This document shows positions 18,470-28,248 of a stretch of 64,000 nt of DNA, in pieces. The notes below the pieces were generated by a model. It saw nothing but the letters and a program-made list of their open reading frames with translations. It did no database searches and was not told the DNA's origin. The position numbers were made by a program, and so were the translations under genes. Position 1 is the first letter of the stretch; each line of letters opens with the position of its first letter. The stretch is from Longimicrobiales bacterium (GTDB taxonomy: Bacteria; Gemmatimonadota; Gemmatimonadetes; Longimicrobiales; Gaopeijiaceae), in contig CBDANQ010000054.1 in the NCBI GenBank assembly GCA_965197725.1, positions 38,823-102,822 of the forward strand, given 5' to 3'.

Positions 18470-19184
18470 ATGATGCTGCCCGACCCTCGACGCCCGTCAC
18501 CGAAGACCGGAACTCATGGATGCTCCGAGTCTCGCACCCGCGCAACGAGCCGGCGCCCTACGGGCGCTCGCTCGCGTGAACGCGCTGTCGGGCGTGGCTC
18601 ACAGAATCTGGGCCGAGATCCATGGATTGCACAGCGCCGGAGCTCCTCGGACGATCCGCGTTCTGGACATCGCCTGCGGCGGTGGGGACGTCGTGGTCTC
18701 GCTCGCCCGCCGGGCGGCTCGCGCCGGTCTCGACCTCGAGGTGCACGGCTGCGACGTGAGCCCGGCGGCCCTGGAAGTCGCACGGGAGAACTCTGAGCGT
18801 GCCGGTGTCCGAGCGTACTTCTTCGAGCTGGATGCGCTGCAAGGAGGGATCCCCGACCCCTACGATGTCGTGTGCTCGTCGCTCTTTCTCCACCATCTGG
18901 ACGAGCACGAGGCTGTCTCCCTGCTCGTGACGATGGCCGAGGGCACACCTCGCACCCTCTTGGTTCAGGACCTACGGCGAACCGTAGCGGGATATCTTCT
19001 CGCCTTCGGCGTGCTCAGGCTGATAACACGGTCGGAGGTGGCCCACACGGACGGACCCCGCTCGGTGGAGGGGGCCTTCACGATGGAGGAGGCGCGCGAT
19101 CTCGCGCGCAGTGCAGGACTCGACGGCGCGCGTGTCGAGGCGTGCTGGCCCCAGCGCTTCCAGCTGACGTGGCGACGCGCGTGA
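18470..19184 (+). CDS. SAM-dependent methyltransferase of type III PKS cluster (frameshift near 18485)
   Basis: ELMD, VLDIACGGGD, SLFLHHL, DGPRSVEGAFT. Intact ORF from 18516; upstream ATG 18470 joins with one C removed. Confidence 0.88.
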
Positions 19185-20348
19185 GCACGATCGAGGCTTC
19201 GACCGACGTCATGTATGGCGCCGTGTACGACGCCGTCGTGGTAGGCGCCGGTCCCGCGGGCACGATGACAGCCCTCGAGCTCGCCCGGTGTGATCTCTCG
19301 GTGCTGGTCGTCGAACGTCAGCCGATGCCGCGCTGGAAAGTTTGCGGTGCCTGTTTGAGCCCGGGCACCCTGGAGCTACTCGGTGCGGCGGGCCTCCCCC
19401 ACCCATTGGACGGCGTACCGCTCTGCCGCCTTCGCCTCGCCGCGTGGTCCACGGAGGCGTGTGTGCCGTTGAGCGGCTCGATGGCCGTATCGAGGCGCTC
19501 CTTCGACCAGATGCTGTTGAGCGCCGCCCGGAACGCGGGTGTCGTGGCGATGACACCGGCCCGGGCCCGCCTCGGGCCGATCGACGGCGGCACGCGCGTC
19601 GTCCGTATAGAGCGGGCGGAGGGCGATCTAGAAGTCGCAGCGCGGGTGGTCATCGATGCAGGTGGACTCGGTGGCGGGTTAGCTGCTGTCACTTGGGGCG
19701 GCGCCGACAGGCTCAGGCACGGCTCACGCATCGGTGTTGGTGCGGTGTTCGCACCGGGCACCGCGGCGTACGCACGCGGCGAGATTCACATGGTCGTGGG
19801 TGAAGGCGGATACGTAGGCCTGGTCCGGGTCGCGGACGGCAGCCTGACCGTCGCAGCCGCCCTGGATCCCTCATGGCTGAGGGGGCATGCCTCACCCGGT
19901 GATGCGGTCGGGGCGCTGCTGCGCACCGCCGGGCTCTGCCGCGTTGCCGGAGCGTCCGTCGGTGGGATGGAAAGGCACACGTGCGCTCACGAGATCTCCC
20001 CCCACGCGGGGCGCGGAGCGCGTCTTCGCGGTAGGCGACGCCGCCGGCTACGTGGAGCCGTTCACCGGAGAGGGTATCTCCTGGGCACTCGCGGGAGCCC
20101 GCGCGCTTGCGCCACTGGTCGCGCGAGCCGCCCGGGGGTGGGATCCCGCTCTGCTCGAGGCGTGGGATCGAGCCCACTCGCGGTCGATGACGCGGGCGCA
20201 GAGGCTCTGCCGCGCGGTTGCGTGGACGTCCCGTCGGCCGCGGCTCGTGATGTTCACGCTGCGCCTCCTGGCACGTCTGCCGGGAGTGGCGGGTCCGTTT
20301 GTACACCGCGCCGGCGCGGCGCCCAACGTCCGCCTGTCGGTGTCATGA
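19181..20348 (+). CDS. FAD-dependent oxidoreductase, geranylgeranyl reductase-like (frameshift near 19965)
   Basis: VVGAGPAG, PRWKVCGACL in the first frame. VGDAAGYVEPFTGEGISWAL in the second frame. GTGA and ATGA overlaps with neighbours. Confidence 0.85.
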
Positions 20349-21439
20349 GCCTGCTGCTTACCGGGTTCGGCACTTCGGTGCCCGAGCACGCGATCGCGCA
20401 GGCGGACGCTGCCGAGCTCGGCGCCCGCTTCGCCGCGCTGGACCCGAAGCGCGCGGCGACGGTCCGAGCGCTCTACCGGAAGGCCGGCGTGCGCAAGCGT
20501 CACAGCGTGCTGCTCGAGAGAGCCGAAGGCGCGCTGATGGACCGACAGTCGTTCTACGAGGAGGCTGTCAGCAGGGACGACCCCGGCCCGTCCACCGAGC
20601 TCCGGATGAGGCGCTACGAGGCCGACGCGCCCGCGCTCGCGGAGGTCGCCGCACGCGCGGCGCTTCGGGATGCCGCACTCGACGCGGGGGAGCTCACCCA
20701 CGTCGTGACGGTCTCGTGCACGGGCTTCTTCTCTCCGGGGCTCGACGCGGTGCTCGTCGACCGGCTGGGGCTCTCCCCTGGCGTCGAACGCACGCACATC
20801 GGCTTCATGGGGTGCCACGGCGCTCTCAACGGGCTGCGTGTGGCGTCGTCGTTCGCGGGCGCGAACCCGGACGCCCGGGTGCTCGTAGCAGCGGTGGAGC
20901 TGTGCACGCTGCACTTCGCCTACGGTCGGGACCCCCAACTCGTGGTGGCCAACGCGCTCTTCTCCGACGGTGCCGCCGCGGTGGTGGGCGTCTCCGACAG
21001 CGGCGACGACACGGGCGCGTGGCGGGTGCTCGCAAGCGGCACGCTACTCATACCCGATTCCACGGACGCGATGTCGTGGCGCATCGGCGACCACGGATTC
21101 CGCATGACGCTTTCGGCCACTGTACCCGACCTCATCGGAGCATACCTGTCGGGGTGGCTCGAGCAGTGGCTCGGTCAGCGTGGACTCGGCTTCGACGACG
21201 TGGCATCTTGGGCCGTGCACCCAGGGGGGCCGCGCATTCTGAGCGCGGTGGGCGACGCCCTCGGGCTGACGAACGGCGCGTTGGAGGTCTCACGCGACGT
21301 GCTCGCCGAATACGGCAACATGTCCTCGGCCACCGTGCTCTTCATCCTCGACGAGTTGCGTCGGCGCGATGCCCCGCGTCCGTGCGTGGCGCTGGCCTTC
21401 GGGCCGGGCCTCGTGGTCGAAGCGGTTCTGTTCGGCTGA
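20345..21439 (+). CDS. Type III polyketide synthase
   Basis: Intact triad GFMGCHG (Cys), AVHPGGP (His), YGNMSSA (Asn). Also VELCTLHF, LAFGPG. Confidence 0.95.
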   Translation: MSLLLTGFGTSVPEHAIAQADAAELGARFAALDPKRAATVRALYRKAGVRKRHSVLLERAEGALMDRQSFYEEAVSRDDPGPSTELRMRRYEADAPALAEVAARAALRDAALDAGELTHVVTVSCTGFFSPGLDAVLVDRLGLSPGVERTHIGFMGCHGALNGLRVASSFAGANPDARVLVAAVELCTLHFAYGRDPQLVVANALFSDGAAAVVGVSDSGDDTGAWRVLASGTLLIPDSTDAMSWRIGDHGFRMTLSATVPDLIGAYLSGWLEQWLGQRGLGFDDVASWAVHPGGPRILSAVGDALGLTNGALEVSRDVLAEYGNMSSATVLFILDELRRRDAPRPCVALAFGPGLVVEAVLFG

Positions 21440-21533
21440 GGCTGGTGGGCACGGTCGGCGTGGCGTGCGGAGCCGGCTGAGACTGCCGGACCGGCCTTGC
21501 GCCTCGGCAAAGCCGACCCGTAAGCTCGGCCCC

Positions 21534-22791
<1,258 letters not shown>

Positions 22792-24006: not shown

Positions 24007-25422
24007 CTAGGAGCTCGTCCGCATGAGAGCCTCCACCTCGTCGATCTGTCGAGGCGCCCCGGCCGACAGGATCACCGGATCCCCATCTGTGACGAGCACA
24101 TCATCTTCGATGCGAACACCGATGTTCCACCACTTCGGGTCGATGTCCTCGGCGGCAGGGATGTAGATGCCCGGTTCGATCGTAACGACCTCGCCAGGGC
24201 GGAGCGGTCCGTAGCTACCCACGTCGTGCACGTCGAGCCCGAGGTAATGGCTGGTCCCGTGCATGAAGAAGCGACGCAGCCCGCCCTGGTCGGCGGCGCT
24301 CGAGATCAGCCCGAGGTCCGCCAGCCCTTTTGCAAGCACACGCGATGCCTCGCGGTTCGAGGCAAAGAACGGGTTGCCGGCCCGTGTTGCTTGGATGCCG
24401 GCTTCCTGAGCGCGGTAGACGAGCTCGTAGATCGCGCGCTGCTCGGGTGAATAGGTGCCGCTCACTGGAATCGTGCGTGTCACGTCGGCCGAGTAGCCGT
24501 GGACTTCAGCTCCGATATCGATGACGACCACATCACCCGCCTCGGTGACCCGCCGGTTCGTGATGTAGTGCAAGATGGTCGAGTTCTCGCCGCTGCCGAC
24601 GATGCTGTTGAAGCCAGGCTGCTCGGAGCCGTTGCGTTTGAACGTGTATTCGACGAGCGCCTCGATCTCGTACTCGGCCCACCCTGCCTTCACCTGCCGC
24701 ATGACCTCGCGGTGCGCCTCGGCGGTGATGTCGATCGCGCGCCGCAACGCGGTCATCTCCTCATCGGACTTGATCGCACGCAGTTCGTCCAGGAGTCCTC
24801 GGAGCGGTGTGGCACCACTGGTACCGCCCCCAGCTAGCGCCTCCGGATCCACGTTGTCGATCAACGCGGTGAGCTGGTCACGCAGCGCTGATCGTTCAGG
24901 GACTCCGTCGGGAAAACCGAGGTGGTAAACACGGTGCTGCCCAGTCCGCAGCAAAGGCACCAAGACCTCGCTGAAGCGCGTCGCCTCGAAGGCGAGCTGC
25001 ACTCCGAGCCGCCGCATAGCGCGCTCTGCACCGAATCGGCGCCCGTCCCATACCTCGCGCGCGGGATCGCGCGGTGGCACGAACAGGATTTCGTGCACGC
25101 GCTCGCCGTCCACTTTCAGCCCCCCCGATGCCATGATCAACGCAGAGCCAGGCTCCTCGCTTCCGGTGAGGTAGAGGAAATCGCTCGCCTGACGGTACTC
25201 GTAGTCCACGTCGCCGTTGCGATTCCGCACTGGCGCCCCGAAGAGCACGACGAGCGAGTTGCCTGGGAGTTGCGCCAACACCGCAGCACGGCGACTGCGA
25301 TGAAAGTCGGCACTCAGGTAGTCCTCGTCGTAGCGAACGGGGGCCTCGACCTCTTGTGCCGGCAGCGCGGCCGGCAGAGAGATGGCCCAGAGCAAAAGCG
25401 TAGTGGTGGCGAGCCGCCGCAT
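24007..25422 (-). CDS. Xaa-Pro aminopeptidase (M24) with signal peptide
   Basis: YRQASDFLYLTG, DIGAE..GYSADVTRT, HGTSHYLGLDVHD, EPGIY, GVRIEDD. Confidence 0.92.
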   Translation of the reverse strand: MRRLATTTLLLWAISLPAALPAQEVEAPVRYDEDYLSADFHRSRRAAVLAQLPGNSLVVLFGAPVRNRNGDVDYEYRQASDFLYLTGSEEPGSALIMASGGLKVDGERVHEILFVPPRDPAREVWDGRRFGAERAMRRLGVQLAFEATRFSEVLVPLLRTGQHRVYHLGFPDGVPERSALRDQLTALIDNVDPEALAGGGTSGATPLRGLLDELRAIKSDEEMTALRRAIDITAEAHREVMRQVKAGWAEYEIEALVEYTFKRNGSEQPGFNSIVGSGENSTILHYITNRRVTEAGDVVVIDIGAEVHGYSADVTRTIPVSGTYSPEQRAIYELVYRAQEAGIQATRAGNPFFASNREASRVLAKGLADLGLISSAADQGGLRRFFMHGTSHYLGLDVHDVGSYGPLRPGEVVTIEPGIYIPAAEDIDPKWWNIGVRIEDDVLVTDGDPVILSAGAPRQIDEVEALMRTSS

Positions 25423-25527
25423 ATCGATCCGTCGGTAGTGTCCTGGTTGGGTTGAAGCACATCCTACCGGGGACGAACCCTTTCCGTCCACCCCCCTCCT
25501 CTCGCAAATTGCCAAAGCGCAACCGTC

Positions 25528-25707
25528 ATGCACCGGATCAAGGGGGACCTCGACATGTACATCAGCCGGCTGGCCGACGCCGGGGTTCGTGTGGGTCGCC
25601 CGTTCCCGCCCATGCTCGAGTCGCGTCGCATCTCGTTCGGACTGCCGGAGGAGCAAGACCCTCGGGCGACGACGCTGAAGGGCTTCCGGGCGAAGGGCTG
25701 GGTCTAG
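25528..25707 (+). pseudogene. C-terminal remnant of a class I/II (HisC-like) aminotransferase
   Basis: Hand translation gives MHRIKGDLDMYISRLADAGVRVGRPFPPMLESRRISFGLPEE...FRAKGWV, matching the RISxGxPEE C-terminal pattern. Confidence 0.55.
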
Positions 25708-25720
25708 CAAACCTCACCCT

Positions 25721-26173
25721 GTGGCAGAACCGCGAATCGAGGACTGGCCCGACCCGCCTGCCATGGACGTGGGCTCACCAGAGCCTGCGGTGTACGAAAA
25801 CCGTGGGACCGCTTGGGTCGCGTATCGATGCCACAACGCGGACTTCCCTGGAGTGGGATCGGGCGCCAGCCCCAATCATCCTGGCTTCGACGAGTACTGC
25901 GCGGTCCTGAGGTTCACGGGAGTCGAGTCGCTGACGCTCGGGCCCCCAGGAGACGAGCGACTCCACGAGCATCCGCTCCACGATGCCGGCCTGCAGCCGC
26001 ACTCGTTCCACGTCGTCGAAGACTCGGACGAGGCGACCGCGGGCGAGACGGCGCACTGGCTCGTGACGTTCCACGACGAAACGCTCGAGGTCATCTCCGA
26101 GGACGCGGACGTACTCGAGCCGAGAGTCGACGTGAACTCGCCTGAGCAGGCGCTCTCCCAGGTAGGTAGGTAG
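25721..26173 (+). CDS. Hypothetical protein
   Basis: 150-aa ORF with protein-like composition and motifs GPPGDERLHEHPL and VTFHDETLE. Confidence 0.65.
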   Translation: MAEPRIEDWPDPPAMDVGSPEPAVYENRGTAWVAYRCHNADFPGVGSGASPNHPGFDEYCAVLRFTGVESLTLGPPGDERLHEHPLHDAGLQPHSFHVVEDSDEATAGETAHWLVTFHDETLEVISEDADVLEPRVDVNSPEQALSQVGR

Positions 26174-26245
26174 CGCGAACTGACGGCCCTGGCGAAAACC
26201 AGGGGGGATCGGTCTCTTCCGGCGACCATGTAGCGGGAGCTTGGC

Positions 26246-27037
26246 ATGACTGGCAGCGTCGAAGCGCAAGCGGGACTCGAAGGGGTGCTCAAGGACGAAA
26301 TCATCCGCATGTACCAGGACGTCGCGGACAATCCAGAGGGCGAGTTCCACTTCTTCCACGGGCGCCAGGCCGCGGAGATGTTCGCGTACGACGCGCGCTG
26401 GCTCGACGAAGCGCCCGAGGGTGCCGTCGCATCCTTTGCTGGCGTCGGCAATCCCCACTTACGTAGCGACGTGCAGCCCGGGGAGACCGTGCTCGACCTG
26501 GGTAGCGGCGCGGGACTCGACGCGATCATCGCCGCGCGTAGCACGGGCCCCACCGGCAAGGTCATCGGCGTCGATCTCAATCCGTCGATGTGCTTGAAGG
26601 CACAGGCCCACGCTGCCGCAACCGGCTCGGAGATGGAGTGCCATGAAGGCCGGATGGAGAGCATCCCGCTGACGGAGGAGTCTGTCGACGTGGTTATCTC
26701 CAACGGCGTCATCAATCTGTCCTTCCAGAAGCGGAAAGTGGTCGAAGAGATGTTTCGCGTCCTCAGGCCGGGCGGGCGGATCTCGATCGCCGACATCGTG
26801 AGCGCGAAGCAGCTGTCCCAGTCGATCGTGAACGACCCCAAGTTGTGGGCGGCCTGAATCGGAGGTGCTCTCCTGGAAGGGGAGATGTTCAGGCTGCTCG
26901 AAGAGTGCGGGTTCCAGCGCGTTCGTGCGGCGGTGGTACCGAACTTTCGGTTCCGCAAGATCGCGACGCAGAACTCGGCGGAGGCGTACGGGGTCAAGGC
27001 AGTGATGATGACCGCGGAGAAGCCCCGCGGCGACTGA
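26246..27037 (+). CDS. ArsM-like SAM methyltransferase, predicted selenoprotein (UGA at 26855-26857), 263 aa
   Basis: VLDLGSGAGLD, VISNGVINL, VLRPGGR. Reads WAA-TGA-IGGAL where ArsM has WxxCxxGAL, then 59 more sense codons to TGA at 27035-27037. Confidence 0.88.
26852..26894 (+). promoter_or_regulatory. Bacterial SECIS-like stem-loop
   Basis: Upper stem CTCTCCT/AGGGGAG with GGA loop 17 nt after the UGA. Lower stem GCCTGAA/TTCAGGC includes the UGA. Confidence 0.72.
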
Positions 27038-27068
27038 GGTGGAGTCACGCCACATTGGAAGGAACCGA

Positions 27069-27431
27069 ATGAGAGTAATCGCTCAAACCACTCGGCCCCC
27101 AAACCCCGCGGATCCCTCGAACTTCGTGCTGCCGGCCCGGATGCAGCCCATAGTGGGCCCGGACGACGATCTTCCGGTACGGCTCTACCGGGTCACGTTC
27201 GACGAAGGCGCGCGAACCCACTGGCACACGCACGACGACGTTCAGCTACTCTTCGGCCTGAGCGGTCGGTGCGTGGTCGTCAACCGTGACGGGGAGGAGC
27301 TGTTCCTCGACCCCGGAGACGTCGTCGCAATCGATCCCGGCGACGAGCACTGGCACGGCGCCGCCCCGGGCACCAGTGGTGAGCACCTCGCCATCAACGT
27401 GGGTCAGGTAACGACCTGGCTGGGCCTCTAG
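27069..27431 (+). CDS. Cupin domain protein
   Basis: VTFDEGARTHWHTH and GDEHWHGA motifs. Confidence 0.88.
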   Translation: MRVIAQTTRPPNPADPSNFVLPARMQPIVGPDDDLPVRLYRVTFDEGARTHWHTHDDVQLLFGLSGRCVVVNRDGEELFLDPGDVVAIDPGDEHWHGAAPGTSGEHLAINVGQVTTWLGL

Positions 27432-27461
27432 CGGATCACCGCCGCCAAGGATGGATACAGC

Positions 27462-28019
27462 TCAAGCCGGATGGCTCATTTGTGACCACAGCTCCGACAG
27501 ATTGGCCGACACATCCTGCATCGCCTGGATCGCGATCGCATCGAGCCTCTGAGCCACTCCGGGTCCGATGAGCCCCGTGAGGAAACGAGCCGGATAGTCC
27601 AGGTCCCAGTCGAGGAACGCCTCTGGCCCCTTGTCGAGGTTCTCCAGAATCCGGATGACCAGGTACGAGTCGTCGAGCAAGCCTGCGAGACCCAACGTCA
27701 TCTCCGGAAGCAGATCCACCGGTTGCAGATAGTAGTTCTCGGCGAGATCGAGCAGCGGGTTCACGACCGACCCGAGCTTCCGAGCCTGCGCCTCCTGACG
27801 CGCGCGGGCCAGGAAGATCGGGATCGATTCGATGATCTCGAGCGCGACGTCGGCAGCCTCCGCGACCTCGGACTCTTCGGACTCGGGTAGCTTCTCGGTG
27901 ATGAACTTCCTGAGTGCCTCGATTCCACCCCGAGCCTTGGCGCTCTCGATGACGGCCAGGATGTCCGGCAACGCGCCGGTGACTACCTGACCGTCTTTCC
28001 GTGCCTCATCGGGCTGCAT
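27462..28019 (-). CDS. Hypothetical protein with DUF1232/YkvA-like motif
   Basis: YYLQPVDLLPE..LGLAGLLDD. Confidence 0.6.
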   Translation of the reverse strand: MQPDEARKDGQVVTGALPDILAVIESAKARGGIEALRKFITEKLPESEESEVAEAADVALEIIESIPIFLARARQEAQARKLGSVVNPLLDLAENYYLQPVDLLPEMTLGLAGLLDDSYLVIRILENLDKGPEAFLDWDLDYPARFLTGLIGPGVAQRLDAIAIQAMQDVSANLSELWSQMSHPA

Positions 28020-28076
28020 GAAATGCCTATCCTTTGCGTGACGAAAGAGTACGTCGATCCGGGGATGGAAGGTGGC

Positions 28077-28154
28077 CTACTCTCCCCCTCCTCGATAGAC
28101 CACCTCTCCTACGATGGCATACACTATTTCGGTGTTCGGGATCGCGTCCTCATC
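28077..28154 (-). pseudogene. C-terminal remnant of an amidohydrolase (YtcJ-like)
   Basis: DEDAIPNTEIVYAIVGEVVYRGGGE-stop resembles the terminal TIVGGxVVY strand. Confidence 0.45.
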
Positions 28155-28248
28155 CAGCCTCCCGCATGCGCTGGCTTCCACGCTTGCCGCAGCGGCCTCG
28201 GACACAGACCTTGCGACGTCGATCAGCCACGTTTCGGCCCCACAAACC

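Follow-up and report, generated by a model that had tools for sequence, protein, structure and literature searches.

Organization of the locus

All coordinates are positions in the window, the whole stretch of 64,000 nt that was analyzed, on its plus strand unless stated otherwise. A coding sequence at 26246..27037 (+) is predicted to encode a class I SAM-dependent methyltransferase of 263 aa with the ArsM/AS3MT fold and a selenocysteine at residue 204 (Sec204). A Shine-Dalgarno-like GGGAG, presumably functional, is seen 6 nt 5' of the ATG (26235..26239, +). When translated with table 11, the ORF starting at ATG 26246 has 203 aa and ends in ...DPKLWAA at TGA 26855-26857, its codon 204; beyond this TGA the frame stays open for 59 codons (IGGALLEGEMF...AEKPRGD) until TGA 27035-27037. 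A further 31 nt separate the end of the coding sequence from ATG 27069 of a downstream Cupin_2 gene, for which GTG 27039 is an alternative start. A preliminary description of this DNA had reported the ORF stop after DPKLWAA, the 59 open codons and the 31-nt gap to the next gene, and all of them are present in the sequence.

Two long minus-strand ORFs, 25876-27102 and 26459-27055, were rejected as genes and read as shadow frames, because the variation sits on third positions of the plus-strand frame. An Rfam scan of 25400-28200 gave 0 matches at E <= 1, and a promoter and terminator scan found none. The ORFs on either side, 25721-26173 (+, 150 aa) and 27462-28019 (-, 185 aa), have no Pfam or NCBIfam match. 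Elsewhere in the window, 18516-21439 holds a row of ORFs that, from reading their translations, we take to be methyltransferase, FAD-dependent oxidoreductase-like and type III polyketide synthase-like; one of them, of 855 aa, appears to fuse two genes over a frameshift, with the oxidoreductase end in frame 19887-20348. A presumed dicarboxylate/amino-acid symporter-like gene at 21369-22791 is apparently split across two frames (21369.. and 21673..22791).

Conservation of the UGA codon and selenocysteine genes of the host

A GTDB genome scan returned 245 related stretches, the best 80 of which (75-84% identity) were used as the orthologue set. TGA occupies column 204 in 80/80 of them, with one stop in the alignment, and is followed by 56-67 open codons. 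The terminal stop of these genes is TGA in 41, TAG in 28 and TAA in 11, while column 204 is never TAA or TAG; since the terminal stop varies in this way, TGA is an ordinary stop in the orthologue hosts and only column 204 is fixed. The nearest named relatives are mostly Gemmatimonadota MAGs, and among 200 sampled genomes of the phylum an orthologue is present in 24 (64-82% identity; one frameshifted, some partial), with TGA in 24/24. The frameshifted appearance concerns L129 (G191:C3:1796670-1797433), matched in two frames, which keeps both the TGA and the SECIS.

The host genome (3.0 Mb, 88.9% complete) was searched for selA, selB, selC and selD, as the preliminary description had proposed, and all are there, each over its curated cut-off: selA with 540.6 bits, selB with 327.8, selD with 383.8 and tRNA-Sec with 68.1. 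The host selD (G000:C45:24135-25061, minus strand, L009) is itself a selenoprotein gene, with an in-frame TGA in GAG-U-ACK and a hairpin downstream. A selA match was obtained in 23 of the 24 orthologue-bearing genomes of the phylum, and the remaining one (G185) has selB and tRNA-Sec; these tallies include one unpublished genome, G157. The co-occurrence is weak evidence, because most genomes of the phylum sample have selA (159 of 201, the host's own included, a high share of selenocysteine users) and related genomes are not independent.

Cysteine in place of the TGA was another expectation, and it is borne out in more distant relatives. No close orthologue has Cys at position 204 (0/80 GTDB loci, 0/24 phylum genomes), and alternation of Cys and TGA is seen only at ~40% identity. 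Both sister homologues of G097 (95% complete) have TGC, and selA, selB and tRNA-Sec were not found in that genome; three other Cys loci sit in genomes having Sec genes.

At the protein level, 119 of the 120 best database matches end at WAA or WAS, that is, at the Sec codon, so the databases cut this family systematically at 203 aa. The single full-length entry among those 120, P0002, has Trp at the site, most plausibly because the gene was called with a different genetic code.

A bacterial SECIS element downstream of the UGA

A hairpin with a G-initiated apical loop had been described 17 nt downstream of the UGA. It lies at 26868..26884 (+) and consists of a 7-bp stem (26868-26874 with 26878-26884) closed by a GGA loop (26875-26877); its sequence is CTCTCCT-GGA-AGGGGAG, the loop G is 17 nt past the TGA and the folding energy is -12.6 kcal/mol. 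The available text of PMC13188914 gives a bSECIS model with a loop of 3-9 nt, a stem of 4-16 bp, a G in the first two loop positions, a spacing of 16-37 nt and an MFE <= -7.5, and the hairpin falls within every one of these limits. Taken alone it is modest evidence, because an equally good 7-bp G-loop hairpin follows 14-25 nt downstream of 3171 of the genome's 75303 TGA trinucleotides (4.2%) and the folding z-score of the window hairpin, computed without the upstream arm, is -0.95.

Comparison of the orthologues gives the hairpin its weight. Codon choice is frozen at codons 208-213 only: Ala208 is GCT in 80/80, against 142 of 1782 Ala codons in the rest of these genes, and Gly212 is GGA in 80/80, against 216 of 1441 Gly codons; Leu209 is CTC in 79/80 and Glu within this block is GAG in 78/79. 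Immediately 5' of the block, Gly206 and Gly207 vary freely at synonymous sites. Pairing of the 7-bp stem reaches 99.6% over 79 distinct rows, and the closing pair is always intact, as U-A in 57, C-G in 17 or U-G in 5. The C-G swap is kept in those 17 rows although Leu210 thereby becomes Pro, a case in which the structure of the RNA overrides the protein sequence. The variant of the window itself, a G at 26881, retains a U-G pair. None of 500 shuffles matched the pairing of the stem, a test inflated by the relatedness of the rows, and slid controls reached 53-76%. At 39-43% identity, 6/6 distinct TGA loci from five genomes keep the stem in the same register with the GGA loop (7/7 pairs in five, 6/7 in one, with a further C-G to G-C swap); 7/7 distinct TGC/TGT loci at ~40% identity have 1-5 of the 7 pairs and no GGA loop. 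The hairpin tracks TGA and not TGC in these distant relatives, which supports its role as a SECIS. By these alignments, its conservation and covariation are far beyond what chance would give.

The preliminary description also had a lower stem that pairs the UGA itself. Such a stem (26852..26894, +; 26852-26858 with 26888-26894) does form in the window, where the fold of 26845-26905 including it has -30.4 kcal/mol and a z-score of -3.77. It is only partly conserved, with 73.8% of cells paired across the 79 distinct rows; three of the seven pairs are broken in 30-54 of those rows, and it was rejected as a conserved regulatory element.

Alternative readings of the UGA

The earlier reading of the UGA as selenocysteine has to be weighed against its being a true stop, with either a finished protein of 203 aa or a split gene re-initiating at ATG 26885 and using the conserved GGAGAG as ribosome-binding site. 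A 50-aa ORF does start at ATG 26885 behind a purine-rich stretch, Met214 is ATG in 75/80 orthologues and the databases carry the 203-aa form. However, codon 214 is CTC, CTG, CTT or TTC in the other 5 of the 80, and the pyrimidine 5' arm of the hairpin is likewise frozen and covaries with the 3' arm. Residues 205-213 are conserved as amino acids while Gly206 and Gly207 are synonymously free, codon 204 never becomes TAA or TAG whereas the terminal stop varies, and there are Cys homologues of full length, 33 among the 70 representatives that have Gly at the position of residue 154. The true-stop reading is effectively refuted, and we would be greatly surprised if it held.

An even smaller chance is left to a sequencing error, a recent pseudogene or a genome-wide recoding of TGA as Trp or Gly. 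The Trp of P0002 and the apparent frameshifts in other genes of the window would speak for it, but TGA is found in 80 independent assemblies, Trp201 is TGG in 80/80 and TGA is the terminal stop in 41/80. Contigs of run X1, possibly the source sample itself, show 0 differences from the stretch; each spans the TGA without a difference, and neither has 31 letters on both sides. Conservation refutes this reading, and the earlier judgement that the TGA is no indel-type error agrees with it. Contigs from the RNA libraries X18 and X19 cover 26561-27044 with 33 differences, and among the rows listed there is no change at the TGA; they were not counted as evidence of transcription because they stem from a related strain, have low depth and could be DNA.

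The locus has what characterizes a bacterial selenoprotein gene: a UGA at a Cys column, conserved as such, coding sequence past it, a bSECIS, and selA, selB, selC and selD in the host. Judging by this comparative evidence, the gene almost certainly encodes a 263-aa selenoprotein, UGA204 being a conserved recoding site, neither stop nor error; incorporation of selenium is accordingly a prediction. From bacterial selenocysteine biology, SelB with GTP and Sec-tRNA would bind the GGA-loop hairpin and deliver selenocysteine at the UGA. We have hardly any doubt about recoding by SelB and tRNA-Sec at this hairpin, given the established biology and the comparative evidence. If selenium were absent, translation would stop at residue 203, and the product would lack its sole active-site nucleophile and the last two strands.

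Protein fold and active-site residues

Pfam places the protein among class I methyltransferases (Methyltransf_31, 99 bits), with LDLGSGAG at residues 83-90 (26492..26515, +), which we take to be the SAM-binding motif I. An AlphaFold model built on a 62-row alignment has a pLDDT of 95.2. According to conservation and this model, the 59 codons after the Sec codon (26858..27034, +) would supply a pair of helices and the final two strands (helices 211-220 and 239-247, strands 224-230 and 251-258). Homology was expected to continue past the TGA, and it does: the residues there are conserved in the protein, while their codons change freely at synonymous sites outside the hairpin. The top structure and sequence matches are CmArsM, CrArsM and human AS3MT (E 1e-20, TM 0.66-0.73).

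The in-frame TGA (26855..26857, +), in the motif U-I-G-G (UxxG), aligns with CmArsM Cys224, in agreement with the earlier suggestion that it occupies a conserved Cys of ArsM. The other positions of the CmArsM cysteines have changed. Cys72 is replaced by Val67 (26444..26446, +; alignment to 4kw7/5evj, Val in 80/80 orthologues) and Cys174 by Gly154 (26705..26707, +; SNGV instead of SNCV, Gly in 80/80), and there is no Cys before residue 116. The fold is that of ArsM/AS3MT, with a chalcogen only at the Cys224 position; from the alignment to solved ArsM, Sec204 would lie next to the SAM methyl.

In CmArsM, methylation of As(III) is reported to require all four cysteines, with the Cys174-Cys224 pair binding the metalloid (PMC6138428); together the two make up the arsenic site, and both steps depend on them (PMC6138428, PMC3877260). 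As given in PMC5552862, an ArsM should have at least 3 of the 4 conserved cysteines (CmArsM 44, 72, 174 and 224). The protein has the SAM-binding class I domain of the ArsM fold and keeps only 1 of these 4 positions, as Sec204. Against NF008823 it scores 208.2 bits for a cut-off of 263 (orthologue L021, 208.5), and against NF041536, NF041537 and NF047649 it scores 185.9/575, 204.5/510 and 179.8/460 bits, ending at 263 aa. By the cysteine criterion and by the HMM cut-off it is not a canonical ArsM, as far as sequence can tell. The label "ArsM-like" used in the preliminary description is right for the fold, and it does not extend to the ArsM cysteines or to NF008823.

A sister branch with Gly in place of Cys174

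A survey of the branch was made with the best 150 representatives of 50%-clusters, in which column 174 is Cys in 72, Gly in 70, Ala in 1 and not covered in 7. Among the 72 of Cys174 type, 71 have Cys at 224 and none end there; the 70 of Gly type include 33 with Cys at 224, 26 ending there at the protein level, 6 with another residue and 5 not covered, a contrast biased by the fact that a truncated canonical ArsM would rank lower in the survey. A quick tree was built with 139 rows (136 representatives covering query residues 66-198, the query and two host paralogues). All 65 Gly/Ala rows fall on one side of a branch with SH-aLRT 87 (not starred), the columns that define the groups having been part of the alignment behind the tree. 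Alignment and tree together place the protein in a large branch that is sister to canonical ArsM and has Gly at the position of Cys174 and Val or Thr at that of Cys72.

The two host paralogues, ArsM-like and of Cys174 type, are open frames of 279 and 397 aa, located at G000:C20:38474-39022 (L102) and G000:C8:15673-16365 (L103/L104); in the former, the motif normally seen behind the last Cys gives way to an unusual AACLPP.

Metagenomes were scanned for a pattern combining Cys174 with TGA, which gave 5 stretches, four of canonical ArsM and one Gly-branch-like with Cys. The four canonical ones, L144, L146, L147 (1501-1668) and L148 (1422-1589), retain the complete Cys set, with TGA in the Cys224 column. 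The hairpin of L148 is identical to the consensus of the window gene's family, and those of L144, L146 and L147 have a GTC loop and a compensated stem. Two of these canonical Sec-ArsM were scored on NF008823 and obtained 325 and 288 bits for the cut-off of 263. Since canonical ArsM with TGA and a same-register hairpin exist, selenocysteine at the Cys224 column would be found in both branches. Gly-branch members score relatively better than canonical Sec-ArsM on NF041537, NF041536 and NF047649, so that the branch may already be among the curated Sec models, which limits its novelty.

Genomic context and domain fusions

Across the 80 loci, no recurrent neighbour family occurs in more than 6, apart from the gene itself and the frames overlapping it. 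A conserved operon with the downstream cupin and the upstream ORF of no assigned family was considered and rejected, the clusters found in 10-80 loci being only the gene and overlapping frames. From the neighbouring ORFs 149 were picked and 85 scanned by Pfam; none of these 85 belongs to an Acr3, ArsB or ArsC-type family, and the context in the 80 loci is not that of an ars operon. Many true arsM genes are solitary, so this absence weighs little. The 85 are mixed enzymes, including two rhodanese genes directly after 2 orthologues, one of them with an ArsR-type HTH.

In 21 longer branch members picked by hand we found TusA-like domains in 3 (one below the Pfam cut-off), a cysteine desulfurase in 1, DsbA/thioredoxin fusions in 2, DUF2652 in 4 and a MerC-like domain in 1. 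Eight further loci were fetched. In L143 (G049:C53:44300-49200) a RACo corrinoid activator, a DUF1638 gene and a TGA-bearing sister methyltransferase are co-directional and face ArsP permease and thioredoxin genes. The Cys-type sisters L141 (G097:C37) and L140 (G146:C94) lie downstream of ECF sigma factor and anti-sigma/cupin genes, and in G097 an OsmC gene is flanked by two Cys-type sister methyltransferases.

Proposed mechanism and substrate

The mechanism that we propose is built on a single selenolate. Placed beside the SAM methyl, Sec204 would hold one soft substrate atom X by one bond (Se-X), and X would attack the SAM methyl; an external thiol or thioredoxin would then free the product and reset the enzyme, in place of the internal disulfide cascade of ArsM. 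A Sec204 selenoprotein of the ArsM fold, together with this single-selenolate proposal, is as a whole very probably the best explanation of the locus.

The substrate is probably not plain arsenite, because the other cysteines that ArsM requires are absent. The most economical guess is terminal methylation of an organoarsenical, because dimethylarsenite is reported to bind a single Cys, Cys224, in CmArsM (PMC6138428, PMC3877260). A substrate held by one bond (a monodentate organoarsenical), for example dimethylarsenite giving trimethylarsine, is a plausible proposal, albeit at somewhat less than even chances. Sulfane sulfur or selenide delivered by a carrier, giving products of the methanethiol or methaneselenol type, is a more tentative one, and the remainder, other substrates including arsenite by a non-canonical route, is about equally tentative. 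An arsenite methyltransferase with a single conserved Cys has been reported active (PMC8649762). It is conceivable, though doubtful, that the sister branch, large and widespread, dropped the Cys cascade and that its single selenolate or thiolate serves another methylation with a volatile product, either trimethylarsine from dimethylarsenite or methanethiol or methaneselenol from persulfide or selenide. If this were true, the Sec members, shortened in the databases, would be miscounted as arsM or as generic methyltransferases, and sediment and soil Gemmatimonadota would hold a hidden step of the arsenic, sulfur or selenium cycle that depends on selenium.

Two other accounts of the function compete with this proposal. 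The protein could be a real selenoprotein and yet an ordinary arsenite methyltransferase, with Sec204 and other residues (His35, His38, His71, Cys116, Cys132) or free thiols substituting for the missing cysteines. Its nearest folds and families are ArsM, its shortened form is called "arsenite methyltransferase" in some databases, and Thermus thermophilus TtArsM is reported to methylate arsenite with one Cys and two His (PMC8649762). Cys116 and Cys132 are present in 80/80 close orthologues, but they become Leu and Phe in L125-L127, orthologues at 64-65% identity that bear the TGA, and for this reason they are not required and were rejected as obligatory substitute arsenic ligands. The reported need for both Cys174 and Cys224 in both steps (PMC6138428, PMC3877260), the two Cys174-type paralogues that the host already has and the lack of ars-type neighbours among the 85 ORFs scanned also stand against this account, which we regard as unlikely. 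The other account is that of a sulfur or selenium methyltransferase, in which a carrier hands sulfane S or Se to the single Sec or Cys, where it is methylated by SAM. Persulfide chemistry requires one nucleophile only. The sulfur-carrier fusions that occur in the branch support such persulfide or selenide methylation: TusA-like, cysteine-desulfurase and DsbA/thioredoxin partners are among the 21 picked members, and OsmC lies between two Cys members in G097 and rhodanese genes right after 2 orthologues. Yet the fusions are few and belong to other sub-branches at ~40% identity, the DUF2652 (4) and MerC-like (1) partners point elsewhere, and the sub-branch of the window gene itself has neither a fusion nor a fixed neighbour; we consider this account possible, with the odds clearly against it.

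Comparison with known systems

The locus represents neither a new kind of recoding nor a new class of selenoproteins, since Sec-containing ArsM-type methyltransferases are already catalogued. Sec arsenite (S-adenosyl)methyltransferase (NF008823/PRK11873, UxxG, one Sec) is a listed family in Table 1 of PMC13188914 and in PMC9312934; the former gives Fomenko et al. 2007 as its reference, WP_011987699.1 is its published representative, and 8 sequences of it are reported from the GOS survey (PMC2398784). In the searched literature, from which supplements and most subscription papers fell outside, we found no description of a Gly-for-Cys174 branch of ArsM-like selenoproteins or of the Gemmatimonadota gene. 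The practical consequences are that annotations of a selenoprotein carried by 24 of the 200 sampled phylum genomes miss 60 residues, the catalytic one among them, and that arsM surveys based on homology only may count the branch as arsenite methylators despite the missing arsenic-binding Cys pair. The enzyme is small, with one domain and one Sec, and has natural Cys orthologues, which also makes it a clean test of the benefit of selenocysteine in a methyltransferase.

The top sequence and structure matches, CmArsM, CrArsM and human AS3MT (PDB 4fr0, 5evj, 6cx6 and 8xt7), have a four-Cys disulfide cascade and a large C-terminal domain, both absent from the window protein. TtArsM, compared by description only, is reported to be an arsenite methyltransferase in which one Cys is conserved; it is described as evolutionarily distant from other ArsM and as using C77, H40 and H179 (PMC8649762). 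The catalogued Sec-ArsM is alike in fold, in the Sec at the Cys224-equivalent column and in UxxG. The canonical Sec-ArsM found here (L144, L146-L148) keep the N-terminal Cys pair, Cys72 and Cys174, whereas the window protein has none of them, and the two that were scored pass NF008823, on which the window protein reaches 208 bits.

The remaining relatives are NF041537 (ArsM_AhpD_UU), NF041536 (ArsM_DUF2284_UU) and NF047649 (MTase_UXPK_star), attributed in PMC13188914 to Haft and Tolstoy 2025. They match residues 15-257 of the window protein, N-terminal helix included, with 180-205 bits, far below their cut-offs of 460-575 bits, and share its UxxG; from the relatively better scores of Gly-branch members on their models, the three families may belong to the same Gly branch. 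Their proteins extend into C-terminal AhpD, DUF2284 or UXPK domains that hold further Sec, whereas the window protein stands alone with one.
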